Shown: piece after piece, positions 28,555-64,000 of the stretch
Layout: every line of letters begins with the position of its first letter
How positions within the stretch are numbered: the stretch's first letter is position 1
Origin: Candidatus Doudnabacteria bacterium
Lineage (GTDB): Bacteria > Patescibacteriota > JAQUNI01
Direction of reading: 5' to 3'
Assembly: GCA_041644975.1 (NCBI GenBank)
Contig: JBAZQX010000005.1
Location: 13,068-77,067, forward strand
Length of the DNA: 64,000 nt
The notes under the pieces: generated by a model
Database searches by the model: none
Seen by the model: the letters and a program-made list of their open reading frames with translations, nothing else
What the model was told of the DNA's origin: nothing
Position numbers and translations under genes: made by a program

Positions 28555-28701
28555 GAATTAGGAATAATGAATCCCCGCACCAAGCCCCCGCTAACGCTCG
28601 GCTGGTACAGGGCAAGCAAGAATCAGGAATGAGCCCCTCCGAAACCTCTCCCCCTACAAAGGGGAGGAACTCCCTGATTCATAATTCCTGCTTCCTAATT
28701 C
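28555..28701. repeat. GC-rich core (28574-28672) flanked by inverted repeats GAATTAGGAATAATGAATC / GATTCATAATTCCTGCTTCCTAATTC
   Basis: Inverted repeats are visible. Internal hairpin ctcccc ctacaaa ggggag. Shares the 9-mer ccccgcacc with element 30204-30302. Confidence 0.6.
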
Positions 28702-30302: not shown

Positions 30303-32792
30303 TTATTCTGGTGACGGGGCTTCCATTTCAGGCTGAAGCTGCTCCAGAGTCTTCGCTTCCACTTCCGCGCGCTCCCTGCCGTATTTCAAGCGCGATAAAT
30401 TTTTTATTTTTCGCGCCAAATCGCGGTCAGGCTTTTGCTCGGGCGATAAGGTCTGCATACTAAAAGCTTTGGAAGGCGTATTATTGATAGTAAGTTTCAG
30501 ATAGGTTTGGAATTGGCCAAGATTGATTAAATCATGGGCGGAAAAAACCGGCTCGGTTTGTTTTTCCACAAACTCGGCGTCATTGGGTCCGATCCGAAAA
30601 GAAGCAAGACTGCCGACATTGCCAAAAACCGCGTCGCGAATCTGTTCCGGAAGCTGGGCGATATATTGATTGGCGAGAGTTAAATTCAGGCGGTATTTGC
30701 GGGCTTCGGACAAAATCGTCATAATACTGTCCGTAGTGAAATTTTGGAACTCATCAATATAAAGATAAAAATCGCGCCGCTCTTCCTCGGGGATATCCAC
30801 CCGCCCCATTGCCGCCATCTGGATTTTAGAAACAATAATCAAACCGAGAAGCGAAGAATTGATCTCGCCGGTTTTGCCTTTAGACAGATTAACGAGCAAA
30901 ATTTTGCCGGAGTCCATAATCTCGCGGAGATTGAAGGCGGAGCGCTGCTGGCCGATAATATTGCGCATCATTGTGTTCTCCACAAACTGCCCGATCTTGG
31001 AAATCAAATAGCCCAACATCTCGGATTTATGAAAATCCGTGGTCTTCGCCATTTCCTTCTCCCAAAAATCGCGCACCACCGTATCCGTCACTTTCGCGAT
31101 CTTGTATTTTTGATATTCCGGATCAGTGAACATCCGCGGAATCTCGGTAATCGTCCCAGGATTTTCCGGATCCGCCATCAAGGTCAGCATCACATTGCGC
31201 ATATTATGCTCAAACATCGGGCCCACAATCTCCGGTGGAAAAAGCTTATGGAAAATGGCAATCATCTCAGAGACGACAAAGTCCTTCTGTTCGGGCGTAT
31301 TATATTCCAGCATATTAAGCCCCAAGGGGCGGTCAATATCTCCCGGGTCAAAAAGCACGACCTCTTCCGCTCTGTTTCTCGGTATAAGGCCTAATAATTC
31401 TTCAATAAGTTCGCCATGGGGATCCACCACGCAAACGCCCTCGCCACTTTGCAAATCCTGCGCCACCATATTTTTAAGCAAAGTGGTTTTGCCCGTCCCG
31501 GTCTGACCAATAACATACAAATGACGGCGCCGATCTTCTCTTTGAATCCGCACCAGTCTCTCCACGCCCCGAAAAACATTCTTGCCAATCACAATCCCTT
31601 CTTGAGGCAGATTGGCGGGCGCCTCGCCCTTCTTGGCAGTAAGCCATTTCACTTCCGGCGTTTCGGTGTAAGCCGTAGGCAAATGGAAAATGCTCGCCAG
31701 CTCCTCGGTGTTTAAAATACTCGCTTTTTCCTCATCAAAAAAACGAAAATTAAAATTGGTAATCGTTTTTTTGGCGCTCCACTTTTTATTTTTATCCGGC
31801 TTGAAACTATTATATTCGGGATAAGTAAACTGCTGAAAAGCGTTGATTAAATTGGACAATTTAATCTCGGCTTGCTCGCGCGTGGGACTCGCGGCCGCCA
31901 GACGAATATTGGTCCGAAAAGCGACCTTGTTCGCTTTCTCTTCCAAAAGCTTTACCGTTTCCTGCTGCAGGGGGGTTAAGGAAGGCGGCGCTTCAATCTG
32001 CTTTTCCCCTTCCACTTCCGGCGCTCTTTTCTTCTTCTCGGCTCCTTGAACCGCTGTCATCACCACCTCGCCGGCAAAATGCGCCATCTTGCCTGCCACG
32101 CTCTTCGCGCCCACCGCCTCCGCGGTTTTCACGCCCTGCTGAATCTTGCGCGCCGCGGAAAGACCCTTGGTCTGCCAGCCTTTGGGAGCGGGACGAATCA
32201 TCACCTCTATACCCCCTCCTTCTTGATCTCCCATCTTGCTCAAAGCGTTAGCAAGAGCCGAGAGAGGGTCATTTTCCAAATATTTATAAGTTTTAATTGG
32301 AAAAACATTTTCGCGCGACAAAACCATATTCGTCGCGAGCACCACGCTCTCGGGAGTATAAAAATTGTATTCCTTCACCTCTTCCAGTTCGGCTTTGGGA
32401 TAAGCCGCCTGGATTTGTTTTTCCACGAGCCCCACCAAATTATTCGGACAGCAAACGTAAAAACTTGTTTCATTATGATGCGCCACAATTTCCAAAGAAA
32501 CAAAATCTTTTTCCTCCCAAAGCTTGGCTTTTTTCACACGATTGAGTTGCGCGAAGCCGGCGAATACCTGCTCCGCCACCGCGATCAACTCCTTCTCTTC
32601 CTGTTTTTCCTCTTTCTCCCCCTTGCCGATTTCTTTCGGCACCCGAATTGAAAACAAAGTTGTTTGGAAAGCCTTAGGCACCTTGGATTTCTTGCGCTGG
32701 TTTAAAATCAAAAAATAAGCAATCAAGATAAGCAATAAAATAAAAAGTATCCCACATAAAAGATAGATGATGGAAAGATTAGTTTCATTCAT
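30303..32792 (-). CDS. TrwB/TraD/VirD4-like coupling-protein-family ATPase (FtsK/HerA superfamily) with N-terminal TM and approximately 400 aa extra domain
   Basis: Walker A GQTGTGKT followed by VVDPHGE (TrwB: GATGTGKS...VDPNGD). YIDEFQNF Walker-B region and LTLANQ. Confidence 0.65.
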   Translation of the reverse strand: MNETNLSIIYLLCGILFILLLILIAYFLILNQRKKSKVPKAFQTTLFSIRVPKEIGKGEKEEKQEEKELIAVAEQVFAGFAQLNRVKKAKLWEEKDFVSLEIVAHHNETSFYVCCPNNLVGLVEKQIQAAYPKAELEEVKEYNFYTPESVVLATNMVLSRENVFPIKTYKYLENDPLSALANALSKMGDQEGGGIEVMIRPAPKGWQTKGLSAARKIQQGVKTAEAVGAKSVAGKMAHFAGEVVMTAVQGAEKKKRAPEVEGEKQIEAPPSLTPLQQETVKLLEEKANKVAFRTNIRLAAASPTREQAEIKLSNLINAFQQFTYPEYNSFKPDKNKKWSAKKTITNFNFRFFDEEKASILNTEELASIFHLPTAYTETPEVKWLTAKKGEAPANLPQEGIVIGKNVFRGVERLVRIQREDRRRHLYVIGQTGTGKTTLLKNMVAQDLQSGEGVCVVDPHGELIEELLGLIPRNRAEEVVLFDPGDIDRPLGLNMLEYNTPEQKDFVVSEMIAIFHKLFPPEIVGPMFEHNMRNVMLTLMADPENPGTITEIPRMFTDPEYQKYKIAKVTDTVVRDFWEKEMAKTTDFHKSEMLGYLISKIGQFVENTMMRNIIGQQRSAFNLREIMDSGKILLVNLSKGKTGEINSSLLGLIIVSKIQMAAMGRVDIPEEERRDFYLYIDEFQNFTTDSIMTILSEARKYRLNLTLANQYIAQLPEQIRDAVFGNVGSLASFRIGPNDAEFVEKQTEPVFSAHDLINLGQFQTYLKLTINNTPSKAFSMQTLSPEQKPDRDLARKIKNLSRLKYGRERAEVEAKTLEQLQPEMEAPSPE

Positions 32793-32804
32793 AAAGACAG
32801 CATA

Positions 32805-33267
32805 AATTATAACTTATAACTTATAACTTGTAACTCAAGACTTCTGAAAAATTTGAGTTACGACGGGTGATGGATTTTAAGTTTTGAAATTATCCCCCAA
32901 AGCATTGCTCCTATTTTTTCAGCCAGATTGATTAATTCACAATATCGCTCTTTATTTAAATATTGCCTGTGATGAGAAAAATAGATAAGATACTTACTTT
33001 CTTTTAATGATCCATATGAAATTTCTAAAAAGTTCCTTAAAGTATTTCTGCTCTGTCGGGCATAACCTTCTATGTAATTCAAAATCACAGACAAAGCCGC
33101 TCTCCGTAATTGCGATATTAAACCAAATTGCTCTATCTTAGGGAAATCTTGAGTATAATCATAAACTTTATTTGCATAAACATCCATAAACTTCTTTAAT
33201 TCCTGATGAAATTGATTTGTCCGTTCCATTCTCTCTTGGGTTATAAGTTACAAGTTATAAGTTACAC
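32805..33267. mobile_element. four-helix-bundle gene cassette bounded by inverted repeats (TTATAACTTATAACTTGTAACTCAAG ... TTATAAGTTACAAGTTATAAGTTACAC)
   Basis: Left arm 32805-32840 and right arm 33241-33267 are reverse complements flanking the single gene 32858-33229. Confidence 0.5.
32858..33229 (-). CDS. four-helix-bundle protein (23S rRNA intervening-sequence protein family, TIGR02436-like)
   Basis: LISQLRRAALSVILNYIEGYARQS, a match to the 23S rRNA intervening-sequence four-helix-bundle family. Confidence 0.7.
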   Translation of the reverse strand: MERTNQFHQELKKFMDVYANKVYDYTQDFPKIEQFGLISQLRRAALSVILNYIEGYARQSRNTLRNFLEISYGSLKESKYLIYFSHHRQYLNKERYCELINLAEKIGAMLWGIISKLKIHHPS

Positions 33268-33272
33268 GATTT

Positions 33273-33932
33273 TCACGCCGCTTTCTTTTCTTCACGACCT
33301 TGGCTTAGAACATCTTTTTGGGCATAGGGATCCAAACGTTGTAATTGTTTAAATCTTCGCACTTCAACCTGCGCTTTCTTTTCCGCGCTTATTGCTTCTT
33401 TCTGCTCTGCGACCGCTTCCCGCGCTTCTTGCGTTAAGTCTTTTGCCGCTTCTTCCGCCTTGCCTGCCGCGATTTGCGTTTGCCGCGCCGCTTCTATGCC
33501 CTGTGGCCTTCCTTTCTCTATTCTTTCCGCGGATAATTCCGCTTTTGCGGCAGTTTTTCCACTCTCCTTTTCAATTTCTTCCTGCGTGCCTTGGACTGCT
33601 TCCCGCGCCATTTCCAATTTTTCCGCGGCGGCATTTTGTTCCTCTAAAGCGTGGCGCGCCTTTTCCCTTTGAATGGTTACTAAAGGATGCTCTGTGGGCG
33701 TAGCTTGCGCCTCCTCTGGAGACGGAGGAGGAGATATTATTTCCTTTTTCTCTGATAATTGTTCTGGTTTTATCTCGGATGGACTCTGGGGTTCAACTGC
33801 GCCCTCCCCAGCTATTTTTTGCCCCTCAAGAGCTTGTTTTTTCAATCTCTGTTCACTAACTTCTTGCAAAGTTTGGGGTGGAGTAGGAAGAGTAGATGTT
33901 TTATCCTGATTTGGGTTTTGATTTAAAGGCAT
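33273..33932 (-). CDS. low-complexity Glu/Ala/Lys/Pro-rich coiled-coil protein
   Basis: No TM helix; compositionally biased. Confidence 0.45.
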   Translation of the reverse strand: MPLNQNPNQDKTSTLPTPPQTLQEVSEQRLKKQALEGQKIAGEGAVEPQSPSEIKPEQLSEKKEIISPPPSPEEAQATPTEHPLVTIQREKARHALEEQNAAAEKLEMAREAVQGTQEEIEKESGKTAAKAELSAERIEKGRPQGIEAARQTQIAAGKAEEAAKDLTQEAREAVAEQKEAISAEKKAQVEVRRFKQLQRLDPYAQKDVLSQGREEKKAA

Positions 33933-37851: not shown

Positions 37852-38247
37852 AAAAATAGTAACTAGTAACTCGTAGTTGGTAATTAAGACGAACCACCCT
37901 TCGGGCGAGATATTACTATTTACTAATTACTGATTACTTCTCTAACCCTTCACCTTTAGCTAAAGATGAAGGGTCTAATGCCTTATTATATTCCTTCCGA
38001 TCATGAAACTCCTCCTGCTTGCCGTCATTCCACTGTTTCACCGGCCGCAGATAACCAACAACGCGCGAATAAACCTCGCATTTTGTGCGTTGTAATTCTA
38101 AATTTTGTCTTGTCTGATTCATTTTATTTTCCTTACTTAAAAAATTATTTTTCATTTTTGATTGTCTCGCTTCGCGAGATCTCGCGAAGCGATGATGATT
38201 TTTCCTGCCCGCTGTGCTCTTAGCAAAGCATGGCGGGCGGGCACTTT

Positions 38248-41200
38248 TTATTTGTCTGGCTTCGCCAGATCTTGACGAACTGTGTAGCCGATTTCCGCGT
38301 CGCACTTAGGACAATATTCATGCTCGCCGGCGATATAGCCGTGCTTGGGACAGATGCTGAAGGTCGGCGTCAGGGTAAAATAGGGAAGGTGATAGCGGTG
38401 GCAAACCTTTTTAACTAAGCTTTTGACGGCAGTAATATTGGGCAGCCGTTCGCCAATAAAGCCGTGTAATACCGTGCCACCCGTGTAAAGACTCTGCAGG
38501 TCGTCCTGACAATCCAAGGCTTCAAATAAATCATCACTAAAGTTAACGGGAAGATGAGTGGAATTCGTGTAATACGGCTTTGCCCCTGCCTGATAAGCTC
38601 TTTCATTCGCCACAATAATTTTAGGATATTTTTCTTTGTCATATTTGGCGAAATTATAGCTTGTGCCTTCGGCCGGCGTCGCCTCTAAATTATACAATTG
38701 ATTCTCTTCGTTCTGATAATCCATCAGCCTTTCCCGCATAAAAACTAAAGTTTCCTTGGCAAACTTATGACCCTTATTTGTAGAGAGACTCGTTTTAAGA
38801 AGATTAAGGCAGGCTTCATTCATCCCCAAAAGACCAATGGTGTTAAAATGATTGCGCCAGTATTCACCAAAAGATTCTTTAATTTTGTCTAAGTAATGAC
38901 GGCAGTAGGGATAAAGACCTCCTTCGGTGAATTGCTCTAAAGCCTCTCTTTTCACCTGCAGACTTTTGCGCGCAACCGCCATTATTTTCCCCAAACGTTT
39001 AAAGAAATCTTCTTTATCTTTGGCTATATAGCCCAAGCGCGGCATATTGATCGTGACTACCCCGATAGAGCCCGTAAGCGGGTTCGCGCCAAAGAGTCCG
39101 CCGCCTCTCTTACGAAGCTCTCGGTTATCCAGGCGCAAACGACAACACATGCTGCGCGCGTCATCCGGACTCATATCAGAATTGACAAAGTTGGCAAAAT
39201 ACGGGACGCCATATTTAGCGGTCACTTCCCACAAGGGATTCCACTCGCGTTTCCCCCATTGAAAATCGCGGGTGATATTAATTGTGGGAATAGGAAAAGA
39301 AAAAACACGTCCCTTGGCATCGCCTTCAAGCATAGTTTCGCCAAAGGCGCGATTAAAAAAATCCATTTCTTTCTGGAATCGGCCATAAGTTTCATCTTTA
39401 AGCTTTCCACCAATTACCACAGGTTCATTTTTAATATTGGCAGGAATAGTTAAATCTAGTGTAATATTGGTAAAAGGCGTGTTGCCCGTAATAAATACTT
39501 TGCCTTTGCGCCGCGCGATCACGGTTTCATTTTCGGTATGCACTGACCAAATTACTCCATGATAATTGACTTTTTTTACCCGCGCGATATAAGTCTCGGG
39601 ATGCTTAATTATTCTCAAAACATAAATATCCTTCTGGCCAATGGTTGGCTTGCGCGTCATTACTGTAAAGCCATAACCGGCCTGGACCAGTATTATTTGC
39701 AACTGATCCAAAAGATCCAAATCCGTGGTCGCAATTTTACAGCCTTCAAAACCGTCGGCTTTAAGGTAAGTGTCTAAAAATAATCTCGCTTGCCGCTCAC
39801 TCAAATCCTGCAAGCAGGCAGGAATAAAATGTATATTCTCTTTCGTACCAAACCACTTATGAATCACTCTGGAACTTTCCGCATCCATTCTCATTCTTTG
39901 CACCTCACCCCCCAAACTTGCAGTCAAATATTCACTATAATGCAGCTTGAAATGTTTTAATAAATTAATAATTTCATTGTAATTCGCTCTATTTTGAAAC
40001 TTGGATTGATAAATGCTCACACGATAACAGCATCTGCGTTTTCCTGGCCGCTCGATTGAACCTTCACTGATCACCCAAGCTAAAAGTTGAATCTGATCAT
40101 CACTAACCTTCGCATCAAGGTTTGCGTTCTTTCCCGCGACAGGAATAATAAATGGCGACTTAAGTTTTAATATTGCTTCAATCGGCTCTAAAACATAGCC
40201 TCCATTACTAAACAATTTTCTTACTACCCTGTGCCCATGTGAAATTAATTGATCCTGTATTCTATTCTTTAAGTTGTACATTACGCCCTGGTATTGTCTT
40301 TTAAAAACCGAAGTAACCTTTTTTTCTTCTAGTTGGCTGTTTTTCAAATTGAAAGTTTTAATCTCATCGCCGGCTTTCACTTCACTATAGCCTCGCCAAC
40401 CTTCGCTGGTCAAAATCTCTGTGTCCCCTGAAAGACATTGAAAACCTACCCGCGTCGGCACATTCATATTAAACAAAAATTCCTGCAGGCACTGTTTAAT
40501 ATCCCCATAACTTAAATCATCATAGCGGATAAAAGGGGCAAGATAAGTATCAAAATTAGAGAAAGCCACTGCCCCTGCGATTTCGCCCTGCACGGTGTAA
40601 AAGAAATTAACAATCTGACCCAAGGCTGCGCGCAGGTGCTTGGGCGGGTGAGATTCAATCTTGCCGGAAACCCCGCCAAAACCGCGCATCAAAAGATCGC
40701 GTAAATCCCAGCCCGTGCAGTAAGCGGACAAAAGCTGAAGATCATGAATATGAAAATCCCGATTTAGATGCGCGTCCCGCACTTCCGGAGGATAAATCTT
40801 ATGCAACCAATAATGGGAGGAAACCGAGGACGCGACATGATTATTCAGTCCTTGCAGTGAAAAAGTCATATTGCTGTTTTCGCGGACGCGCCAATCCACC
40901 TGTGATAGATAGCCCTCCATTAGTTCGTCGGAGTCAATAAATTTCCGCAAATCCCTTAGTCTCGCGTGTTGATCGCGATAAAGAATATAGGCCTTCGCCG
41001 TCTTCGCGTGTCCTTCTTCAATCAAAACCTTTTCCACCAAATCTTGGATTTGCTCCACGGATGGGATAGTATGGCCATCAAATTTTTCATTTAAAAGGAT
41101 AACTACCTTGGCGGCTAATTGTCTGGCGAGTGCCCTATTCCGCCCCCCCACCGCTTGCGCCGCCTTAAAAATAGCCGTCGCGACTTTTTCTGGTTCAAAA

Positions 41201-41256
41201 GGAACAATCCTGCCATCCCGCTTCTTGATTTCCCTGACCTGTTTTGTTTTTGCCAT
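38248..41256 (-). CDS. nrdD: anaerobic ribonucleoside-triphosphate reductase with N-terminal ATP-cone and an internal LAGLIDADG intein
   Basis: N-terminal ATP-cone; NrdD catalytic regions. A 319 aa insertion begins CLSGDTEI and ends ITGN|T. Confidence 0.9.
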   Translation of the reverse strand: MAKTKQVREIKKRDGRIVPFEPEKVATAIFKAAQAVGGRNRALARQLAAKVVILLNEKFDGHTIPSVEQIQDLVEKVLIEEGHAKTAKAYILYRDQHARLRDLRKFIDSDELMEGYLSQVDWRVRENSNMTFSLQGLNNHVASSVSSHYWLHKIYPPEVRDAHLNRDFHIHDLQLLSAYCTGWDLRDLLMRGFGGVSGKIESHPPKHLRAALGQIVNFFYTVQGEIAGAVAFSNFDTYLAPFIRYDDLSYGDIKQCLQEFLFNMNVPTRVGFQCLSGDTEILTSEGWRGYSEVKAGDEIKTFNLKNSQLEEKKVTSVFKRQYQGVMYNLKNRIQDQLISHGHRVVRKLFSNGGYVLEPIEAILKLKSPFIIPVAGKNANLDAKVSDDQIQLLAWVISEGSIERPGKRRCCYRVSIYQSKFQNRANYNEIINLLKHFKLHYSEYLTASLGGEVQRMRMDAESSRVIHKWFGTKENIHFIPACLQDLSERQARLFLDTYLKADGFEGCKIATTDLDLLDQLQIILVQAGYGFTVMTRKPTIGQKDIYVLRIIKHPETYIARVKKVNYHGVIWSVHTENETVIARRKGKVFITGNTPFTNITLDLTIPANIKNEPVVIGGKLKDETYGRFQKEMDFFNRAFGETMLEGDAKGRVFSFPIPTINITRDFQWGKREWNPLWEVTAKYGVPYFANFVNSDMSPDDARSMCCRLRLDNRELRKRGGGLFGANPLTGSIGVVTINMPRLGYIAKDKEDFFKRLGKIMAVARKSLQVKREALEQFTEGGLYPYCRHYLDKIKESFGEYWRNHFNTIGLLGMNEACLNLLKTSLSTNKGHKFAKETLVFMRERLMDYQNEENQLYNLEATPAEGTSYNFAKYDKEKYPKIIVANERAYQAGAKPYYTNSTHLPVNFSDDLFEALDCQDDLQSLYTGGTVLHGFIGERLPNITAVKSLVKKVCHRYHLPYFTLTPTFSICPKHGYIAGEHEYCPKCDAEIGYTVRQDLAKPDK
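39481..40437 (-). mobile_element. intein (319 aa) with LAGLIDADG homing-endonuclease domain inside nrdD
   Basis: Block A CLSGDTEI. LAGLIDADG-type LLAWVISEGS and LFLDTYLKADGF. C-terminal ...ITGN followed by the +1 Thr. Confidence 0.75.
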
Positions 41257-41916: not shown

Positions 41917-42924
41917 CTACGCGGAACTTTCCGCTTTGTCCGTTCTTAAACTTTCTTTTTTCAAACATGGTTCTTTATCTAAATCTATTTCACTATCCCC
42001 AACTTTTAATTTCTTTCTTTGCACCCACACAAAACCCTTATCTGGCGTTATTACTGCAACATCAACTGGACCCCCAACTCCGGGCATATCTCCTGGATCA
42101 AAAGCAACACCATCAGAAAAACGTTGAATTGCGGAGGTAGTTTGAATCATTAAAACACAAAAATCAATTGCATCCTGTAAAGTCATTGTTCCCCATTGAA
42201 TAACATATTCTAGACTACGAAGTTGTTTAGTGAGTTCTTCCTTCCCGATCCTCTCACTTGCCTCGCTGACAAATTTCAAATTGCCGATTCTACCATCAAA
42301 GCCTAAAACAATCCTCGTCACTACGTCTATTTGTCCAATCCACGAAGCGCCATACTCTTTACCCTTTTCTAAACTATCTCTTTTCTTTTGGATTTCACCG
42401 GGGATATAGCAGGCATAAACTTCATGCGATCCATCTTTATTATAGCCAGCGATAAGAAGATTAATGGCGTCAATGCCGCCAATACCATCTTTCAAATTGC
42501 CTTGTGGATCCCGAAATTTAAATTTAACTAAATGTTGTTCTTGCTTTATTTCTATTATTTCACACCCTTGTTGCTTCAGATCATTCTTGATTTTCTCTGG
42601 CAGTTTCTCAAATTCTTCCCGCCACTTGTATTTTTTATTAAATAAATAATGTAACTTTTCCGCCATCTCTTTCACATCTATATTTTCTAAATCAGTCTCT
42701 CGTTTGAATTGCTCAATAAATTTACTTACATTTTTCGGCACGCCATCTTCGGGTAAAAAAGCGATTCCGGTAATTGCTACACCAACCCTACTATTCAGTT
42801 GGAAAAGCTTAGAAGCATTATCACTCCCGATCCGCGCCATTCCTTTCATGTTCCGAAAAGACTGTCGACTATCCGCCGCCAGGACAATACCTTCTGGAGT
42901 TGTTGTGTTGATTGCTAGAGACAT
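41917..42924 (-). CDS. proteasome beta-subunit-like Ntn hydrolase with approximately 100 aa internal insertion
   Basis: MSLAIN propeptide then TTTPEGIVLAADSRQS (Thr1 and GxxxAxDxR). Later GIAF and AGYNKDG...Y..IPG blocks. Confidence 0.5.
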   Translation of the reverse strand: MSLAINTTTPEGIVLAADSRQSFRNMKGMARIGSDNASKLFQLNSRVGVAITGIAFLPEDGVPKNVSKFIEQFKRETDLENIDVKEMAEKLHYLFNKKYKWREEFEKLPEKIKNDLKQQGCEIIEIKQEQHLVKFKFRDPQGNLKDGIGGIDAINLLIAGYNKDGSHEVYACYIPGEIQKKRDSLEKGKEYGASWIGQIDVVTRIVLGFDGRIGNLKFVSEASERIGKEELTKQLRSLEYVIQWGTMTLQDAIDFCVLMIQTTSAIQRFSDGVAFDPGDMPGVGGPVDVAVITPDKGFVWVQRKKLKVGDSEIDLDKEPCLKKESLRTDKAESSA

Positions 42925-42976
42925 GAAATTATTTTTAAACTTTTAAGTTTATAATAGACTATCATACAATGTCGAT

Positions 42977-43771
42977 TTAAGTAAAATTGTCCCAATTTTT
43001 TCCTAGTCTTAATATCTTAACCGCTCTCTTCAGGATTTCTTCGGATATAGATCTATTTGTCAGAATAAATAATTTTTTAGCTGATTGAAGCATCTTTCCT
43101 TCTGTAATGAGCCCTCTATAAACCATTATTGGCAGGAAATGAAAAAGATGATAAATAGTTATACCATTATATTCAAGATCAATCCCCAAATTTTTATATT
43201 CCTCCGTAACGGCATAGCAACCCACGCTCCCTATAGCACTAACCGTCGCAGCTAACCAAAAATCACCCAAATGATTGTGGTAATCTGCTACATGACCTGA
43301 CCAGGAACTTTGAGCTCGCCAGTTTTCAAAAACGAGGGAAGTAGTATCATGACTCCTATTTGGAGTCCCATGAAATAATGGGTTGCCGATTTCATTAAAT
43401 GATGCAGTAGTATTATATTGATCTGAGCCGTTTACGAAGGAGTAACTAACAACGAGATCTTCACCAATATTGATAGTGCCATTAGATCCTTTAATTTGAG
43501 GGGTAATATATGGGTAATTCATATCAACATTTTTAATCATAAAAGCAATATCATCTGATTTAATATAAGGTCTAATTTCCCTATTGTAGACTTCAAAAGA
43601 AGCACACCAATCAGGACAGATAAAATTCAATTCCTTAATTATCCCTAATTCGCATGCAAAGGTGGTAGGATTAGAATCCATTATACATTCTCTTTTCTCA
43701 TCATTCAATGCTATCACTTTTTCCACAAAATCTTCCGATAGATCCCTTGAGTCTTTCATCTTTTGTATCAT
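42977..43771 (-). CDS. hypothetical protein
   Basis: 264 aa; no recognised motifs. Confidence 0.45.
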   Translation of the reverse strand: MIQKMKDSRDLSEDFVEKVIALNDEKRECIMDSNPTTFACELGIIKELNFICPDWCASFEVYNREIRPYIKSDDIAFMIKNVDMNYPYITPQIKGSNGTINIGEDLVVSYSFVNGSDQYNTTASFNEIGNPLFHGTPNRSHDTTSLVFENWRAQSSWSGHVADYHNHLGDFWLAATVSAIGSVGCYAVTEEYKNLGIDLEYNGITIYHLFHFLPIMVYRGLITEGKMLQSAKKLFILTNRSISEEILKRAVKILRLGKNWDNFT

Positions 43772-44030
43772 CTTTTTATTTTAATTAAAATCTCCAGAGA
43801 ACCAAATCTTGTATTATGCGACCTAAGTATACCACAATCCATTGTGCTTGAGATGTGGATAACTCCTCTATTGCTCCATTGTTCTATTGTTCAATTGCTA
43901 CTTTATATTACTTGATTTAGACCTAACAATGGAACAATGAAACAATCAAACAATGATTAGTTTTTAAAATCAGAATAGCAAAAAACAAGCTATTCTAAAA
44001 GCTTGTCCTAAAAACACTATCACAAAATTT

Positions 44031-45146
44031 TTACCTTCCCATCTTCTTCCGGATGAAAGCAGGGATATCCAATTCGTCCTCGTTGCTCGTTTCTTCTTCC
44101 TCTTTCTCCGCTTCTTTAGTCTTGACCTCTAAGGCTTCTTCTGGGAGCTCGGCGCTAAAAATGTCTTCCTCTTCTTTCTTTCCTTCCTCCCTCTTTTTCC
44201 CCTCAAAGCCCGTGGCAATTACGGTGATTTTGAGTTCTCCTTCCACTTCAGGATCAATCACCGCGCCGAAAATAATTTTCGCCTCTGGCGACACTTTTTC
44301 CGTGATCACCTTAGCGGCTTCGTCAATTTCATACATTCCTAAATCCGACCCGCCAGTCACATTAAAGAGAACCCCTTTCGCCCCGTCAATAGAAAGCTCC
44401 AGAAGAGGACTGGAAATCGCCGCTTTAGCGGCCTCCCTGGCTCGCCCTTCACCGCTCGCACGACCGATACCCATTAAAGCAGAACCGGCGTCACGCATAA
44501 TTGCTTTCACGTCGGCAAAGTCCACGTTGACAATACCAGGGACGACAATCAAATCGGAAATGCCCTGCACGCCTTGGCGCAAAACATCATCCACAATTTC
44601 AAAAGCCTCTAAGAGTGAGGTGGATTTATCAATAACTTGTAAAAGACGATCATTGGGAATTGTAATCAGCGTATCCACTTCTTTCGCTAAAGACACTAAG
44701 CCTTGTTCCGCGATATTCCGCCGCGCTAAACCTTCAAAATTGAAGGGTTTCGTAATCACGCCAATCGTAAGCACTCCCGCCTCTCGCGCCAGGTTGGCGA
44801 TCACGGGACTCGCGCCCGTACCCGTCCCGCCGCCTAAACCACAGGTGATAAAAACCATATCCGCGCCTTTCAATGCCTTAGCGATTTCATCGCGGCCCTC
44901 TTCTGCCGCCTGCCGGCCGATTTCGGGGTCCATTCCGGCTCCCAATCCCTTAGTGATATTTTTACCAACGTGAATCCGCGTTTGAGCGCTGCTTTTCTGT
45001 AATGCTTGGGCATCAGTGTTAATGGCGATAAATTCCACACCCTTAATATCCGAAGCGATCATCCGATTAATCGCATTCCCTCCTGAACCGCCAACGCCTA
45101 CTACCTTTAACCGCGCAAAGGTTTCTAAATCTGGTTTAATCTCCAT
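44031..45146 (-). CDS. ftsZ: cell division GTPase FtsZ
   Basis: Tubulin signature [13 protein letters not shown]. Confidence 0.92.
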
Positions 45147-45149
45147 AAA

Positions 45150-45225
45150 ATTCTTATAACGTGTAACTTAAAACTTGTAACTCAAGTAAATTCTCCCTTG
45201 TGTTACACGTTACAAGTTACAGGTT
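45150..45225. repeat. apparently empty copy of the TTGTAACT-type inverted-repeat pair (as flanks the four-helix-bundle cassette)
   Basis: cttataacgtgtaacttaaaacttgtaactcaag ... cttgtgttacacgttacaagttacagg with only a short spacer. Confidence 0.5.
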
Positions 45226-45290
45226 TCCAAAGTTCAAGTTATTATAGATGATTCTTTTCTTTATGGCAATACCTCTTGCCTAAAATTATC

Positions 45291-46535
45291 TTACGGTAAA
45301 AAATTCTTAAACCAACGTTTCATTCTGTCCATGCCGCTGTTCAATTTGGTTAAACCTTCACGGTTGAACTCAAAGGAAAACCTATTTCCCTCTCCCAACC
45401 CCCAATGAATTAGACCTGTGGCGGTGGCAAAAACAGGATCATCCACCTTATCCACAGATATTGAAAGCCCCATCGGAAAACCAATCTGCGCCGGGAGACG
45501 CAGAATTTCCTTAGCTAAATCAACCACCCCCGGCAACTTCGCGCCGCCGCCCACAAGCACCGCTCCTGCGGGCAACTGCGCGCTACGGCCAATTTTATGT
45601 AATTCTTTGTCAATCATCTTAAAAATTTCTTCACCACGGGCTTCAATAATCTCTGCAACTTCGCGTCTTGAAATCACTCCTTTCTCCTTCTTCACGACTT
45701 TCGCAAGGTCAATCTCTTCTTGTTTATCAATCTCGTGAGGCAAACAAGACCCATATTCAATCTTCACCCGTTCCGCCGTATCCATAGAAGTACGCAGTCC
45801 AATCGCCAAATCTGAACTAATATGCTCCCCGCCCACTGGCAGGGCCCCACCGGAAAGAAGCCCGCCCTCTTCATAAACGCTAAAACTTGTGCTTCCTCCT
45901 CCAAGGTCAATCAGCACGACGCCCAAATCACGTTGACGTTTTTCAAGTACCGACCAAGCGGAAGCCAAAGGCGCAAAAACTAATCCCGCAACATCCACCC
46001 CCGTGCGCTCCACGCAGCGCGTCAGATTATTAAGCAGGGAAGACGAAGTTTCCACGATGGTCGTCACCGCTTCCAAACGGACGCCGTTCATCCCTACGGG
46101 ATCTTTAATGCCGCCTTCATCATCCACGATAAAATCCCGCGGCAGGATATGCAAAATCTCCCGATTAGAAGAAATACTTACCGCGGAAGCGGCTTCAATC
46201 ACGCGGGAAACATCGTTTTTTGAAATCTCGCCGTCCGCCCTTGAAATCGCGATCACCCCACGAGACTCAAGATATGATATCTGCGCGCCGCCCACCGAGA
46301 CATAAGCCCGTCCCACTGGTGAACCCGCCATTCTCTCCGCTTTCTCTAAGGCGGAAGAAATACTCGTGACGATTTCTTCGGCGTCCACGATGGCACCCTT
46401 TCTGATCCCGAAAGAAGGAGACTCGCCAATTCCCAAAATACGGGGCTTGTCTTCTAAACCCCCTCTTTCTACAATAATCACCCGAATATTCGCCGAACCC
46501 AGGTCAATACCCGAAATAATTTCTTGTTTGGACAT
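45291..46535 (-). CDS. ftsA: cell division protein FtsA
   Basis: Actin-fold motifs GIDLGS and LIDLGGGSTS. Start placed at MSKQEII. Confidence 0.88.
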   Translation of the reverse strand: MSKQEIISGIDLGSANIRVIIVERGGLEDKPRILGIGESPSFGIRKGAIVDAEEIVTSISSALEKAERMAGSPVGRAYVSVGGAQISYLESRGVIAISRADGEISKNDVSRVIEAASAVSISSNREILHILPRDFIVDDEGGIKDPVGMNGVRLEAVTTIVETSSSLLNNLTRCVERTGVDVAGLVFAPLASAWSVLEKRQRDLGVVLIDLGGGSTSFSVYEEGGLLSGGALPVGGEHISSDLAIGLRTSMDTAERVKIEYGSCLPHEIDKQEEIDLAKVVKKEKGVISRREVAEIIEARGEEIFKMIDKELHKIGRSAQLPAGAVLVGGGAKLPGVVDLAKEILRLPAQIGFPMGLSISVDKVDDPVFATATGLIHWGLGEGNRFSFEFNREGLTKLNSGMDRMKRWFKNFLP

Positions 46536-46587
46536 AAATAAAATCAAAATGTAAAAATCAAAAATTGCTCCGTTGCTTCTTAAGGAT

Positions 46588-46612
46588 GTCGCTTCATCGA
46601 GCGACATCCTTA
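46588..46612. repeat. hairpin gatgtcgcttcatcgagcgacatc
   Basis: Same core as the hairpin at 41271. Confidence 0.6.
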
Positions 46613-50338: not shown

Positions 50339-50482
50339 GGAAATAATTTTAAATTCTAAATTTTCAATTTTAATTCAATTTTAAAATCCTAATTTTAAAT
50401 TTTAAAACCAAGGGAAAGAAGAAAGGGTTTTAAAATTAAAAAATTTAAAATTTGGATTTGATTTAAAATTTAGAATTTAAAA

Positions 50483-51835
50483 TTATTTCTTCCTCATCTT
50501 CGCCAGCCTCTTCTTTACCTCGCTGACGATTTTATCTCTGTTAATAAGTTCCTGCACTCCCGTTTCCATATCGCGTAAAAGAATTGTTTTCTCTAAAGCT
50601 TCTTTCTGACCTAGAATTAAAGTGACTTTAACACCCAGCCGGTCCGCTACTTTGAGTTGAGACTTAAGGCTCCCTCGCGAAAAGGATTCCGAAACAATAA
50701 TGCCGTTTTGGCGAAACTCTTCAAAGAGCACCAAAGCTTTCCTTTTGGCAAGTTCCCCGAGTTGCGCCAGAAAGACGTAGATTTTACGCGAGCGAGGAGG
50801 CTCAATTTTACTTTCCATAAGTTGCATGATAATTCGTTCCATACCGCAGGAGAAACCCACAGCCGGCGTTAATTCGCCTCCTAAATCTTCCACCAAATTA
50901 TCATAACGTCCGCCGCCGCCCAAAGCGATTTGTTTTCCTTCTTCCTGCCCCTCTGCCTTCCCGGGCCAAATTTCAAAAACCGTCTTGGTATAATAATCCA
51001 AGCCTCTTACTAATTTAGAAGTCAAACTGTAGACAATCTCTAATTCATCAAGCTGTTCTAAAACTTCTTTTAGGTGGTCATGGCATTCCTCGCACAGAGA
51101 ATCAATCAAAGCCGGGGCATTATTAGCTAGCCTCTGACATTTTTCCTCTTTACAATCTAAAAGCCGCAAGGGATTGGTTTTGAGCCGTCTCTTACAATGG
51201 GCGCAAAGTCGGGAGGTTTGCCCCTGATAATAACTTAACAAAGTCTCTTTATATGCTGGCCGGCAGGCCACGCAACCTACACTGTTGATTTTAATATTGA
51301 AACTGGACAATCCCAAAGCTTTTAAGATATTACTGGCGACTAAAATCATTTGAGCATCCGAGGTAGGCGAAGCTGACCCTAAAATCTCAAAACCAAATTG
51401 ATGGAACTCCCTAAAACGTCCTTTCTGGGGCTGGTCATACCGAAACATAGGACCAAAATAATAAAGCTTCAACGGTTGAGGCTTATTCACAAGTCCATTT
51501 TCAATGTAGGCGCGGGCGATCCCCGCCGTGTTTTCCGGCCGCAGAGAAATACTGTCTCCTCCCTTATCCTTGAAAGTGAACATCTCCTTCTCCACAATAT
51601 CCGTTCCGCTTCCCACTCCCCGCACAAAAATATTTGTGTCTTCAATAATTGGCGTGTCAATACGGCTAAAACCATATTCAAATGCTATCTTTCTCACCGT
51701 GTCCCGCATAAAATCCCAATAAGGCTGATCATCAGGTAAGATATCTTTTGTTCCTTTAACCGCCCGAAATAAAACTCTGCGACGCAAAGGGAGGGGTTCA
51801 TCTTCGCTCAAATTTTGTTTCTTAAATCGTGGCAT
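50483..51835 (-). CDS. hisS: histidine--tRNA ligase
   Basis: Class II aaRS motifs and a HisRS anticodon-binding C-terminus. Confidence 0.9.
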   Translation of the reverse strand: MPRFKKQNLSEDEPLPLRRRVLFRAVKGTKDILPDDQPYWDFMRDTVRKIAFEYGFSRIDTPIIEDTNIFVRGVGSGTDIVEKEMFTFKDKGGDSISLRPENTAGIARAYIENGLVNKPQPLKLYYFGPMFRYDQPQKGRFREFHQFGFEILGSASPTSDAQMILVASNILKALGLSSFNIKINSVGCVACRPAYKETLLSYYQGQTSRLCAHCKRRLKTNPLRLLDCKEEKCQRLANNAPALIDSLCEECHDHLKEVLEQLDELEIVYSLTSKLVRGLDYYTKTVFEIWPGKAEGQEEGKQIALGGGGRYDNLVEDLGGELTPAVGFSCGMERIIMQLMESKIEPPRSRKIYVFLAQLGELAKRKALVLFEEFRQNGIIVSESFSRGSLKSQLKVADRLGVKVTLILGQKEALEKTILLRDMETGVQELINRDKIVSEVKKRLAKMRKK

Positions 51836-54161: not shown

Positions 54162-54258
54162 AATAGGGAGGCATGAATCATGAATAAGGAATAAGGAGAG
54201 TAAAATAATTGCAAAATTCCTAATTCATGATTCCTAATTCACGATTCATCAAGAATTT

Positions 54259-55124: not shown

Positions 55125-55443
55125 TGTGCACCTCCTTCAAAAGAACAATCGATGATTTAACGCTTTTATTTTACACCATTTCAAATTCAAAATACACCGC
55201 ATCTTTCTTCTCCCTTATCCCACTTGCAAGTCTAGAGCCGCAAAAACCATAAAGGTTTTGGACCTTAAGTTAACAGCTACTTGTAGAAGACCTAAGGAGG
55301 GATTGGCTCCTACTTTCGCCACTTGCAAATGGGGTAGCAGAGAAGAATATTGCTTCATTAATAAATTTCTGCTTCCGTTAAATAATGAAACAATGGAACA
55401 ATGAAAAAGGTGAGACATTAAAATTTAGCATAAGGTATTACCT

Positions 55444-58988: not shown

Positions 58989-60079
58989 CCACTGACGCGA
59001 GATACTACCACGCCTTCAATTTGATTCCCAACATCGGGCCATTAAAGTTTAAAAAGCTTATTGCTTATTTTTCGGATTTAGAAAAAGCCTGGTTCGCGCC
59101 CTGCGCGGAAATCATCAGAAGCGGCATTTCGGAGGAAGTGAGCCAAAGAATCTGCGCGGAACGCCAGCGCATCAATCCTGAAACGGAATGGCAAAAATTA
59201 ACAGCGCAGGGGCTTCAAGCCATCACCATTCAAGATAAGGATTATCCCCCTCTCCTCAAAGAAACTTATGACCCGCCGGCAATCTTGTATCTGCGTGGTC
59301 AAATTACAAATCCCAACCAAACCTCTTTAAGCGTAGTCGGCACGCGCAAACCCACATCTTACGGCCGAGAAGTAACATTTCAACTGGTAGGTCTGCTTGT
59401 CCAAGCCCAAATCACCATCGTTTCCGGATTGGCTTTGGGCATTGACGCCCTTAGCCACCAAGCCTGTTTGAATTTTGGCGGCTACACCATTGCGGTTTTG
59501 GGCGGAGGCGTAGACGATCCTTCAATTTATCCACGGGCGAATTGGCAGCTTGCCCAAAACATTATCCAAAAAGGCGGCGCTCTGGTCTCCGAATACCCGC
59601 CCGGCACCAAACCGTTAAAACAAAACTTTCCGCAACGCAACCGCATTATCTCTGGTCTCTCTAAAGGAGCTCTGATTATTGAAGCAGGCGAAAAAAGCGG
59701 CACTTTAATTACCGCGCGCGCCGCTTTAGAACAAAACCGCGAAGTCTTCGCCGTGCCCGGCTCCATTTATAACCCTTGTTCGCGCGGGACTAATTACTTG
59801 ATTAAAATAGGCGCTAAACTGGTAACGAATATCCAAGATATTTTAGAAGAATTGAATTTAAGTGTCTTACAGGAAATCCCGAGAAATCAAAAAATCACCC
59901 CCGATAATCCCGAAGAAGCTTTGGTACTGCAACATCTTTCCGGCGAGCCAATTTACATTGACGAATTAGCCAAAAAAACAAAACTCGCGCCGGCTAAGAT
60001 ATCCACAACATTGACAATCTTAGAAATGAAAGGTATTGTTCGCAATATTGGAAGCGCGAATTATGTGATAGCAAGGTAA
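58985..60079 (+). CDS. dprA: DNA processing protein DprA (Smf)
   Basis: Rossmann-like DprA core VVGTRKPTSYG...GLALGIDA...AVLGGG...VPGS. Confidence 0.85.
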   Translation: MTTDARYYHAFNLIPNIGPLKFKKLIAYFSDLEKAWFAPCAEIIRSGISEEVSQRICAERQRINPETEWQKLTAQGLQAITIQDKDYPPLLKETYDPPAILYLRGQITNPNQTSLSVVGTRKPTSYGREVTFQLVGLLVQAQITIVSGLALGIDALSHQACLNFGGYTIAVLGGGVDDPSIYPRANWQLAQNIIQKGGALVSEYPPGTKPLKQNFPQRNRIISGLSKGALIIEAGEKSGTLITARAALEQNREVFAVPGSIYNPCSRGTNYLIKIGAKLVTNIQDILEELNLSVLQEIPRNQKITPDNPEEALVLQHLSGEPIYIDELAKKTKLAPAKISTTLTILEMKGIVRNIGSANYVIAR

Positions 60080-60217
60080 ATTTTAAATTCTAAATTTTAA
60101 ATCAAATCCAAATTTGAATTTCTTAATTTTAAAACTTTTTTTTCTTTGTCTTAAAATTTAAAATTCAAGCATTTAAAATTGATTTAAAATTAAAAATTTA
60201 GAATTTAAAATTATTAT

Positions 60218-63472: not shown

Positions 63473-64000
63473 TTAATTCATGATTCCTGATTCATTATTC
63501 AAACTAATTATTTCTTGCGCCAGATGTTTGTATGCTCGCGCGCCCTTGCAGAGAGGTTCATAATTTAAAATTGCCTGACCAAAGCTCGGCGCTTCAGCCA
63601 GCCGCACGTTTCTTGGAACAATGGTTTCAAATACTTTGCCGGGAAAATTTCTCTGCACCTCGCGCACCACGTCATTGGCAATGCGTGTTTTTTTGTCCCG
63701 CATCGTAAGCACCACTCCCAAAATATTCAAACTGGGATTCAAATTCTTCTGCACTAAATCAATAGTGTATAAAAGTTGGGAAAGTCCTTCTAGGGCATAA
63801 TACTCGCACTGCACGGGAATAACGACGCTGTCCGCCGCCGTGAGCGCGTTCACGGTCAAAATTCCCAAAGAAGGCGGCGAGTCAATCATCACGTAATCAT
63901 AATCCCCTTTAAGCGGGGTTAAAACTTTTTTCAATAAAAATTCTCGGTCAGGCAAGCTGACCAATTCTACAGCCGCGCCGGCCAAATCCGGCGAAGCTGG
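63473..64000 (-). CDS. parA: chromosome partitioning ATPase ParA/Soj (5' end beyond window)
   Basis: MIDSPPSLGILTVNAL and the C-terminal ParA pattern. The Walker A region lies outside the window. Confidence 0.85.
   Translation of the reverse strand, partial: PASPDLAGAAVELVSLPDREFLLKKVLTPLKGDYDYVMIDSPPSLGILTVNALTAADSVVIPVQCEYYALEGLSQLLYTIDLVQKNLNPSLNILGVVLTMRDKKTRIANDVVREVQRNFPGKVFETIVPRNVRLAEAPSFGQAILNYEPLCKGARAYKHLAQEIISLNNESGIMN

Follow-up and report, generated by a model that had tools for sequence, protein, structure and literature searches.

A four-helix-bundle gene between inverted heptamer arrays in a Patescibacteria operon, a probable relative of rRNA intervening sequences

Why should a gene of the family named after the intervening sequences (IVSs) of 23S ribosomal RNA (rRNA) lie between inverted repeats among protein-coding genes, and why should a cognate repeat pair lie, without any gene, between ftsA and ftsZ? 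Both are found in the 64,000-nucleotide stretch of contig JBAZQX010000005.1 analyzed here, hereafter the window, whose source lineage is placed by homologues and synteny in the Patescibacteria or candidate phyla radiation (CPR), near 'Candidatus Torokbacteria'. The origin, mobility and function of rRNA IVSs and of their conserved open reading frame (ORF) have been a question since the early 1990s. A study of Coxiella still calls IVS functionality and origin unclear (PMC4990558). We argue, with a probability of roughly 60%, that the gene and its repeats form an IVS-type selfish cassette embedded in an operon and accompanied by non-autonomous, ORF-less copies.

The gene and its array bracket

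The cassette probably extends from about 32793 to 33280, lodged between two genes of a protein-coding operon. Its parts, in the order of transcription, are the following:

33240..33267, minus strand: 5' arm, four tandem heptamers, sense GTGTAAC TTATAAC TTGTAAC TTATAAC
33230..33239, minus strand: leader CCAAGAGAGA, between the 5' arm and the ATG
32858..33229, minus strand: four-helix-bundle protein gene, 123 aa, PF05635/TIGR02436, with the motif R43-x3-S47-x3-N51-x2-E54
32835..32857, minus strand: trailer after the stop codon, ending in TCTTGA, the partner of the leader in an inner inverted repeat
32807..32834, minus strand: 3' arm, sense GTTACAA GTTATAA GTTATAA GTTATAA

The 5' arm starts 5 nt past the stop codon of the upstream gene (33273-33932), and the ATG of the downstream gene stands 14 nt beyond the 3' arm. 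On the plus strand the arms read as TTRTAAC units (32807-32834) and GTTAYAA units (33240-33267). The inner inverted repeat is formed by CAAG of the leader and CTTG of the trailer, and the purine run of the leader is the sole candidate ribosome-binding site of the gene. The initial annotation had described a TIGR02436-like gene between perfect inverted repeats of 27-36 nt. Gene and inverted repeats are indeed present, the complementary segments (32810-32840 and 33234-33264) being 31 nt long and 90% complementary; perfection at that length does not hold, since the perfect core measures 19 nt (32817-32835 / 33246-33264) and the arms are arrays of tandem heptamers. A search of the window with the two-unit motif TTRTAACTTRTAAC, allowing up to two mismatches, returned 15 matches where 1.76 are expected, a number reached in none of 100 shuffles; 13 of the 15 fall at the cassette and at the ftsA-ftsZ locus. 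When folded, the whole cassette closes on its terminal stem (minimum free energy -108.6 kcal/mol, z -2.9). The gene runs in the same direction as the unannotated 219-aa gene upstream (p219) and the gene for a VirD4/TrwB-like ATPase downstream; DUF167 and PIF1 genes are also among its neighbours. Rfam and tRNA scans of the window detected no rRNA, tRNA or other Rfam family.

The encoded protein belongs to PF05635/TIGR02436, and all testable defining features of the family are present. Profile searches assign it to PF05635, 23S_rRNA_IVP, with 96.3 bits against a cut-off of 33.8 (E 1.5e-27), and to TIGR02436, 'four helix bundle protein', with 98.2 bits against a cut-off of 24 (E 3e-28). The helix-2 motif R-x3-S-x3-N-x2-E, published for the family as GxxRxxxSxxxNxxE (PMC3936711), occurs as QLRRAALSVILNYIEG; across 37 sequences R43, N51 and E54 never vary, and conservation of S47 is 90% or more. 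An AF2 model built with 37 homologues (pLDDT 93.9) consists of four long helices. Its best Foldseek matches are XCC0516 of Xanthomonas (2GSC; TM-score 0.85, rmsd 0.9 A) and BT_0352 (2RLD; TM-score 0.8), whose crystal entries contain five chains each and suggest a pentameric state for the PF05635 family. An exact-sequence look-up of the window's protein, a search of phage genomes and the PADLOC defence models gave no match.

The next structural matches are Avd, the accessory factor of diversity-generating retroelements (DGRs; 4DWL), and the DGR ribonucleoprotein (8UB7), both with a TM-score of about 0.75. Judged by the model, the protein is a close structural relative of the pentameric XCC0516 and of the RNA-binding Avd. 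That it could be the Avd of a DGR is nevertheless extremely improbable. The fold is alike, Avd forms a pentamer such as the crystal entries suggest for the PF05635 family, and Pfam and NCBIfam report weak matches to PF22296 bAvd (36.5 against a cut-off of 40) and DivGenRetAVD (32.8 against 80), but both scores are under the cut-offs. Avd is an adaptor binding nucleic acid and reverse transcriptase, whereas the cassette has neither a reverse transcriptase nor a template/variable repeat pair nearby, its neighbours being p219, the VirD4-like gene, DUF167 and PIF1. DGR membership was rejected on the sub-cut-off scores and the lack of a reverse transcriptase among these neighbours.

The bracket is a property of the family. 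We compiled 80 homologous loci from species-representative genomes, almost all of them CPR, of which 79 were usable for period statistics, and compared them with 237 pseudo-genes of equal length set at other positions of these loci. The best tandem period was 7 or 8 on both flanks in 94% of the 79 loci and in 3% of the controls, and the inverted-repeat score between upstream and downstream flanks exceeded the 95th percentile of the controls in 68 of 79. Arms of the CPR loci have a median of about four units. Pairing was measured as ungapped helix, because base-pair counts from RNAduplex were uninformative, controls also giving long gapped duplexes; measured in this way, the helix between flanks is 28 nt long in the median, and 69/80 loci have one of 20 nt or more, compared with 16/120 controls. 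The units vary from locus to locus (CATGAAA, CATGTAA, CTTATAA, CGTGAAG, CTCATAT, with octamers in seven loci) and the two arms of each locus match. Cognate arms pair more stably than arms taken from different loci (-45.0 versus -32.8 kcal/mol, p 2e-8). This complementarity, kept despite divergence of the units, is covariation at the scale of whole arms. No other cargo gene was convincingly bracketed by arrays, the other long-range pairs being neighbouring hairpins: the array bracket is specific to the PF05635 gene family, and arrays essentially never bracket other genes. A purine-rich 5' arm, tried as a rule, holds for GC-rich and CATGAAA-type units and fails for TAAC-type units.

Such regularity bears on the most trivial explanation, simple-sequence slippage in AT-rich spacers or an ordinary terminator or promoter. 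Array copy number does change as in slippage-prone repeats, and the periodicity of four TTRTAAC units mimics a sigma-70 promoter. The arms are, however, complementary across loci with unrelated units, their arrangement is specific to PF05635 genes, no terminator-like site was found at the cassette locus or the ftsA-ftsZ locus, and promoter mimicry is inapplicable to GC-rich or CATGAAA-type units. This explanation is highly improbable, and terminator and promoter were rejected as general accounts. The mimicry can be seen in the window's 3' arm (32806-32834, minus strand): with 21 nt to three units, the array produces a sigma-70-like GTTACA-17-TATAAT (10/12) a short way upstream of the VirD4-like gene. 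Promoters could thus arise by accident from AT-rich arrays.

TIGR02436 genes exist in thousands of copies in CPR and cyanobacteria, often between cas genes. The same design was found well beyond the CPR:

Calothrix, plasmid: units GGGTGTA / CTACACC
Nostoc, plasmids: units GGGAACA / TGTTCCC; TCAGGAG
Anabaena sp. 90, between cas6 and cas4: units GGTGACA / TGTCACC
Stanieria, plasmid: CAGAAGG-type units
Gemmatirosa, plasmid: octamers
Viral contig (IMG/VR): units GTAGTCT / AGACTAC
Azospirillum lipoferum plasmid, inside a large-subunit rRNA gene (Rfam 2520 bits): AGAGGAC GGATGAC AGAGGAC GGAGGAC ... GTCCTCT GTCTTCT GTCATCC GTCTTCT

The stem-bounded unit recognized in the initial annotation therefore recurs, with inverted flanks at 94% of the 79 CPR loci, on cyanobacterial plasmids, in Xanthomonas, on a viral contig and in a true IVS; inverted repeats accompany four-helix-bundle genes almost everywhere examined. 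Its statement that the family typically resides inside 23S rRNA IVSs was mistaken, as family members lie mostly outside rRNA. What it did not contain is that the arms are tandem 7-mers, across the family, and that solo hairpins built of other units occur at no fewer than five further sites of the window.

Two systems connect the cassette to published work. In Coxiella, RNase III cuts the 28-bp terminal stem of the IVS (Warrier et al., PMC4990558); two or three tandem GACAGAT heptamers, varying in number, stand just upstream of the S23p start codon, and 5' cleavage occurs at the first repeat (PMC4990558). The Azospirillum heptamer stem lies inside 23S rRNA and is not part of a native rRNA helix. 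Because these IVSs share stem and heptamer design, the window cassette, as read from its DNA, has the anatomy of an ORF-bearing IVS placed in an mRNA context. In Xanthomonas campestris and a Stenotrophomonas, where XCC0516 orthologues were located with the sequence recovered from a PDB alignment, the gene lies between accB and accC. Its upstream arm reads GGGAATC GGGAGTG GAGAATC GGGAATC and its downstream arm (C)ATTCCC (C)ATTCTC (G)ACTCCC (T)ATTCCC, complementary unit by unit with variant units included, and the accC ATG follows immediately. The flanking unit is exactly the published orphan repeat GGGAATC, present at 186 sites in X. campestris pv. campestris, 70 of them convergent inverted pairs, for which neither a function nor an associated gene was given (Rehm et al., PMC4692102). 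In the open-access literature we found no paper linking GGGAATC to XCC0516 or stating a general gene-array rule, although database family notes could hold one; the nearest prior statement there is the Coxiella note on direct heptamers.

Operon placement, turnover and gene-less copies

At the CPR loci the arrays fill the spacers, with median gaps of 44 nt to the upstream gene and 39 nt to the downstream gene. The four-helix-bundle gene has the orientation of its co-directional neighbours in 54/54 cases, against 107/121 for ordinary middle genes of the same loci (Fisher p 0.006 against this baseline; p 1e-16 against random orientation). Since stop-to-start spacers are filled by the arrays, no room is left for a dedicated promoter, and the simplest reading is that a promoter-less cassette would be expressed by read-through, with both arms on one transcript. 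Four-helix-bundle cassettes were also seen repeatedly in type-IV-secretion or competence-like CPR clusters beside VirD4-like and PrgI-like genes (window 30303-32792 and loci L004, L005, L010 and L016); this could be chance or an operon preference.

The p219/virD4-like junction is orthologous in several related genomes, designated below by locus number with the identity of their VirD4 proteins to that of the window:

Window and L081-L083, about 97%: full cassette
L175, 90%: a small GC-rich insert of another kind
L176, 80%: direct array ACGTAAC TAGTAAC TAGTAAT CAGTAAC TAGTA, extending into the ATG
L177, 78%: inverted octamers (ATTGTT-type) as a solo hairpin
L178, 76%: plain spacer of 25 nt

The comparison called for by the initial annotation thus gives a full cassette in L081-L083 and none in L175-L178, at 90, 80, 78 and 76% VirD4 identity, in agreement with its proposal of a mobile element. 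Unit families are shared between sites: TAGTAAC occurs at window position 37857 and at the L176 virD4 site, and ATTGTT octamers at window position 43866 and at the L177 virD4 site, so that these families appear dispersed. Even between strains with identical protein the arrays change. Their 5' arm is identical and the 3' arm differs in unit type and number: L081 and L083 carry three GTTACAC followed by GTTACGC, L082 carries GTTACAC GTTATAA GTTACAC GTTATAA GTTACGC, and the window GTTACAA followed by three GTTATAA. Over about 17 kb of synteny between the window and L081, at about 94% nucleotide identity, array content differs at several spacers. Downstream of ftsZ there are octamers in the window and AAAATNN heptamers in L081; downstream of ndk, L081 alone has a TTRTAAC arm with the leader-like TCAAGGAAGAGAGG, one of its three TTRTAAC sites; and the array between comEC and the metallo-beta-lactamase (MBL) gene of the window is split by a 44-nt GC-rich insert. 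These alignments show presence and absence at an orthologous site together with rapid unit turnover.

The cognate pair announced in the initial annotation is found in the spacer between ftsA (45291-46607) and ftsZ (44031-45146), as two arms of 29 nt (45158-45186 and 45197-45225), 83% complementary and 10 nt apart:

45241..45269, minus strand: promoter-like TTGCCA-17-TATAAT (11/12), just upstream of the solo hairpin
45197..45225, minus strand: 5' arm of the solo copy, sense ..CCTGTAAC TTGTAAC GTGTAAC ACAAG
45154..45196, minus strand: loop GGGAGAATTTA, left over from the cassette leader, followed by the 3' arm CTTGA GTTACAA GTTTTAA GTTACAC GTTATAA

The ftsZ ATG is 7 nt past the 3' arm. The hairpin folds with -25 kcal/mol (z -3.5) and is colinear with the cassette minus its ORF, keeping the leader CAAGRGAGAAT and the trailer CTTGAGTTACA. 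Identity between solo copy and cassette is 30/36 over 5' arm and leader (CAAGGGAGAAT versus CAAGAGAGAAT) and 27/30 over trailer and 3' arm (CTTGAGTTACAAGTT...). L081 has the same hairpin with 63 nt extra in the loop, including a GC-rich mini-hairpin. This alignment supports the suggestion that the ftsA-ftsZ hairpin would be a solo, ORF-less form of the cassette. The hairpin shows no terminator features. Unrelated array hairpins occupy the ftsA-ftsZ spacer in L093, L097, L098, L100, L113, L155 and L165, and most relatives have no array hairpin there. The promoter-like site, if used, would put the solo hairpin in the ftsZ 5' leader.

The window has at least five further gene-less array hairpins, and each of them takes up the spacer between two housekeeping genes. 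Detection looked for inverted repeats first, stricter array detectors having missed many cassettes (no strand is assigned):

37857..37939: TAGTAAC-type heptamers, 4 + 4 units around a GC-rich loop of 27 nt, between nrdG and the C-terminal fragment of nrdD
43866..43952: octamers, NNATTGYT x4 / NNAACAAT x4 with a 23-nt loop, downstream of ftsZ
50345..50484: AATTTTA-type heptamers, a long hairpin with loop CCAAGGGAAAGAAGAAAGGG, between hisS and a HIT-family gene
54170..54252: CATGAAT/TAAGGAA heptamers and their complements, ending a few nt before the pth start codon (54259)
60078..60213: AAATTTT-type heptamers, filling the dprA-topA spacer

In L168 the position of the window's octamer hairpin, directly after ftsZ, is taken by a full four-helix-bundle cassette.

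The abundance of such hairpins raises the possibility that they came first, as native operon punctuation serving RNA processing, stabilisation or translation control, and that the gene is a passenger with a preference for hairpin loops, much as it is found at rRNA helix tips. Solo hairpins outnumber cassettes: the ftsZ-centred loci of 80 other CPR genomes (399 kb, unselected in this respect) contain 17 of them and one cassette, that of L168, and the window at least six and one cassette. Solo hairpins fill stop-to-start spacers of housekeeping genes, and the array hairpins of several relatives in the ftsA-ftsZ spacer are unrelated in sequence. The promoter-like site that would put the window hairpin in the ftsZ leader fits this proposal, as do the TAACTGA heptamer arrays found directly upstream of start codons in Beggiatoaceae (PMC4679880). 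Hairpins are not conserved at orthologous sites, however, even at 94% identity, and many relatives have none; the ftsA-ftsZ hairpin keeps the leader and trailer of the cassette itself; and the heptamer stem in 23S rRNA stands apart from the native helix. We regard a host origin of the hairpins as quite unlikely.

An IVS-type cassette and its alternatives

In the IVS-type reading, the order along the operon is upstream stop codon, 5' array of three to five tandem heptamers, leader, gene for the intervening-sequence protein (IVP) with its Avd fold, trailer, complementary 3' array and downstream start codon. The cassette would be transcribed only by read-through from the host operon, as its invariable co-orientation and the spacers wholly filled by arrays suggest. 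The arrays, whose complementarity is observed, would pair in the transcript into a stem of about 22-45 bp. RNase III requires a stem of roughly 20 bp as a minimum, which the cassette stems exceed. By analogy with the rRNA-borne members, the enzyme would cut this stem, free the cassette mRNA and leave the host RNAs functional, and we propose that insertion is tolerated for that reason. The element would spread to and be lost from spacers while its arrays turn over as units are gained, lost or homogenised. The ftsA-ftsZ hairpin, whose homology to the cassette ends is plain from the alignment, and other ORF-less copies would be its non-autonomous derivatives. In the most tentative step, the protein would be a trans-acting factor binding the arrays, a role suggested by the Avd/XCC0516 fold and by the situation in Xanthomonas. 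We can only speculate on the design of the arms: three units come close to two turns of A-form helix, tandem stems might survive unit gain or loss by pairing in another register, and four or five units would match a pentameric ring.

Several observations weigh against this reading. Arm mismatches carry no RNA-strand signature (114 G:U in the sense direction versus 135 A:C) and the energies of sense and antisense duplexes do not differ (p 0.21), so that a role of the repeats at the DNA level is equally compatible. Protein distance and unit distance correlate weakly (r 0.15, p 0.026) and unit sequences are very diverse even within the window, which together speak against a protein that simply recognises a specific sequence. 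The empty site of L178, when compared, revealed no obvious direct repeat that would be a target-site duplication, the spacers being too diverged for base-level mapping. In L081, homogenisation has turned the 3' arm into GTTACAC units that pair with their 5' counterparts at about 5/7 positions each, so perfect pairing is not strictly maintained. Finally, some arrays are direct only, among them that of the L176 spacer and the single arms at positions 55378 and 63474.

The foremost competitor is a mobile element acting as DNA, of the type formed by REPINs (hairpins of repetitive extragenic palindromic, REP, sequences) with REP-associated tyrosine transposases (RAYTs), or of the miniature inverted-repeat transposable element (MITE) type. 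The arrays would be terminal repeats forming hairpins or cruciforms on single-stranded DNA, the protein would belong to the copying or moving machinery, and the RNA stem would be a by-product. The layout is similar: REPIN/RAYT systems likewise have a single gene between inverted short repeats and many gene-less spacer doublets behaving as non-autonomous copies (PMC3116915, Bertels and Rainey 2011), just as the window has one cassette, the cognate ftsA-ftsZ doublet and at least six solo hairpins in all, and L081 its three TTRTAAC sites. XCC0516 is flanked by GGGAATC in a genome reported to have 186 arrays of that unit, 70 of them as convergent pairs (PMC4692102), the same unit families (TAGTAAC, ATTGTT) occur at different sites of related genomes, and a strand-specific G:U signature is absent. 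MITEs, too, resemble the ORF-less copies, which keep both termini and are dispersed in spacers. On the other side, RAYTs are Y1/HUH transposases of the IS200/IS605 kind, whereas the cassette protein is a four-helix bundle of about 120 aa with no recognised catalytic domain: a Pfam scan returned PF05635 and bAvd only, and no transposase, nuclease or recombinase domain. REP sequences are conserved palindromes, unlike the arms of the cassette, which are tandem arrays of a highly variable 7-8-nt unit, and units within one genome are far more diverse than REP families. MITE termini are unique inverted repeats and not arrays, and neither a transposase nor, in the L178 comparison, a target-site duplication was seen. 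The 54/54 co-orientation with host transcription is unexpected for a purely DNA-level element, and the rRNA-borne members are demonstrably processed as RNA (PMC4990558). On balance we hold a DNA-level element to be unlikely.

The IVS-type cassette we favour is closest to the ORF-bearing 23S rRNA IVSs of Coxiella burnetii (S23p) and Leptospira. Common to both are the PF05635 protein, the terminal inverted repeat closing a stem, tandem heptamers adjacent to the ORF and varying in number among strains, and sporadic presence among relatives. The differences are that the window copy lies between protein-coding operon genes and not in a 23S helix (25 or 45), that the general inverted-array rule and the ORF-less hairpins are absent from the open-access IVS descriptions found, and that RNase III excision without re-ligation, shown for Coxiella (PMC4990558), is a prediction for the window cassette. 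The element appears to work like an IVS but lies outside the rRNA that defines IVSs. An ORF-bearing IVS would then be one instance of a general cassette bounded by inverted 7-8-nt arrays, residing mainly in operon spacers and surrounded by many gene-less hairpins.

Cyanobacterial short tandemly repeated repetitive (STRR) sequences are orphan heptamer repeats, and they and TAACTGA are likened to the cassette arrays here by description only. The orphan heptamers in the literature (GGGAATC of Xanthomonas and GGGGAYT of Nostoc, PMC4692102; TAACTGA of Beggiatoaceae, cyanobacteria and Bacteroidetes, PMC4679880) are also intergenic tandem units, often in convergent pairs, lying between co-directional genes and varying in length among close relatives. 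The corresponding papers treat them as G-quadruplex or regulatory motifs, with no link to a four-helix-bundle gene (PMC4692102, PMC4679880). A bolder extension, which we put forward tentatively and hold to be less probable than the cassette itself, is that IVP proteins and heptamer/octamer arrays make up a widespread two-component mobile system, in which the protein would act in trans to bind, protect or propagate arrays, cassettes with the ORF would be autonomous and array hairpins would be their non-autonomous copies. If true, this would give 23S rRNA IVSs, the Xanthomonas GGGAATC repeats and possibly the cyanobacterial and Beggiatoaceae heptamer repeats a common origin, and the very large family of 'four helix bundle proteins' a function. 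The general cassette itself joins three literatures that do not cite each other, those of IVS biology, of the TIGR02436 family and of heptamer repeats (in Xanthomonas, perhaps in Nostoc and Beggiatoa). Xanthomonas offers a tractable test system, with a solved structure, the accB-accC position and about 180 published arrays of GGGAATC. For annotation, many of the inverted repeats seen in CPR spacers would be explained by the cassette family, and array hairpins of this kind should not be taken for terminators.

Further arrays and neighbouring sequences

Besides the paired arrays, the window has two unpaired ones, octamers at 55378-55408 upstream of mfd and TTCATGA-type heptamers at 63474-63501 at the 3' end of parA, beside the parA-parB spacer. 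Each may be half of an element or, as in L176, a direct array. In L010 a 42-nt heptamer-array inverted repeat (1849-1890 / 2474-2515) with a 583-nt interior lies inside a 332-aa ORF and is translated as repeated ETRNxKPETQ-like peptides; arrays may therefore persist in frame within coding sequence.

GC-rich mini-hairpins, such as CCCCCCACCTTTTGAAAAAGGTGGGGG and CCACCCTTCGGGCG, stand out in this AT-rich genome, in the loops of array hairpins or splitting arrays (window ~28573-28616 and 37885-37911, L081 1421-1500 and L175 2009-2075). An 11-bp direct repeat, AGGGAATCAGC, brackets the L175 copy. The mini-hairpins may represent a second, smaller mobile element targeting array hairpins.

The array hairpin downstream of ftsZ is adjoined by a DnaA-box-like TTATCCACA (TGTGGATAA on the plus strand) at about 43855-43863, which is kept in the close relative L081 (~2800) and recurs near ftsZ in L093, L097 and L099, in their ftsA-ftsZ spacers. 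Between ftsZ and nrdR the window also contains two genes without Pfam match (41917-43771, minus strand; 264 and 335 aa). Both are absent from L081, where the spacer is 201 nt, an indel of about 2 kb beside the octamer hairpin. NrdD (38248-41256, minus strand) has 1002 aa in the window and 675 aa in the syntenic L081, and its Pfam NRDD match falls in two stretches, which suggests that it carries an insertion of about 330 aa, possibly an intein. The extreme C-terminus of NrdD is a separate small ORF (37934-38305, minus strand), likewise in L081.

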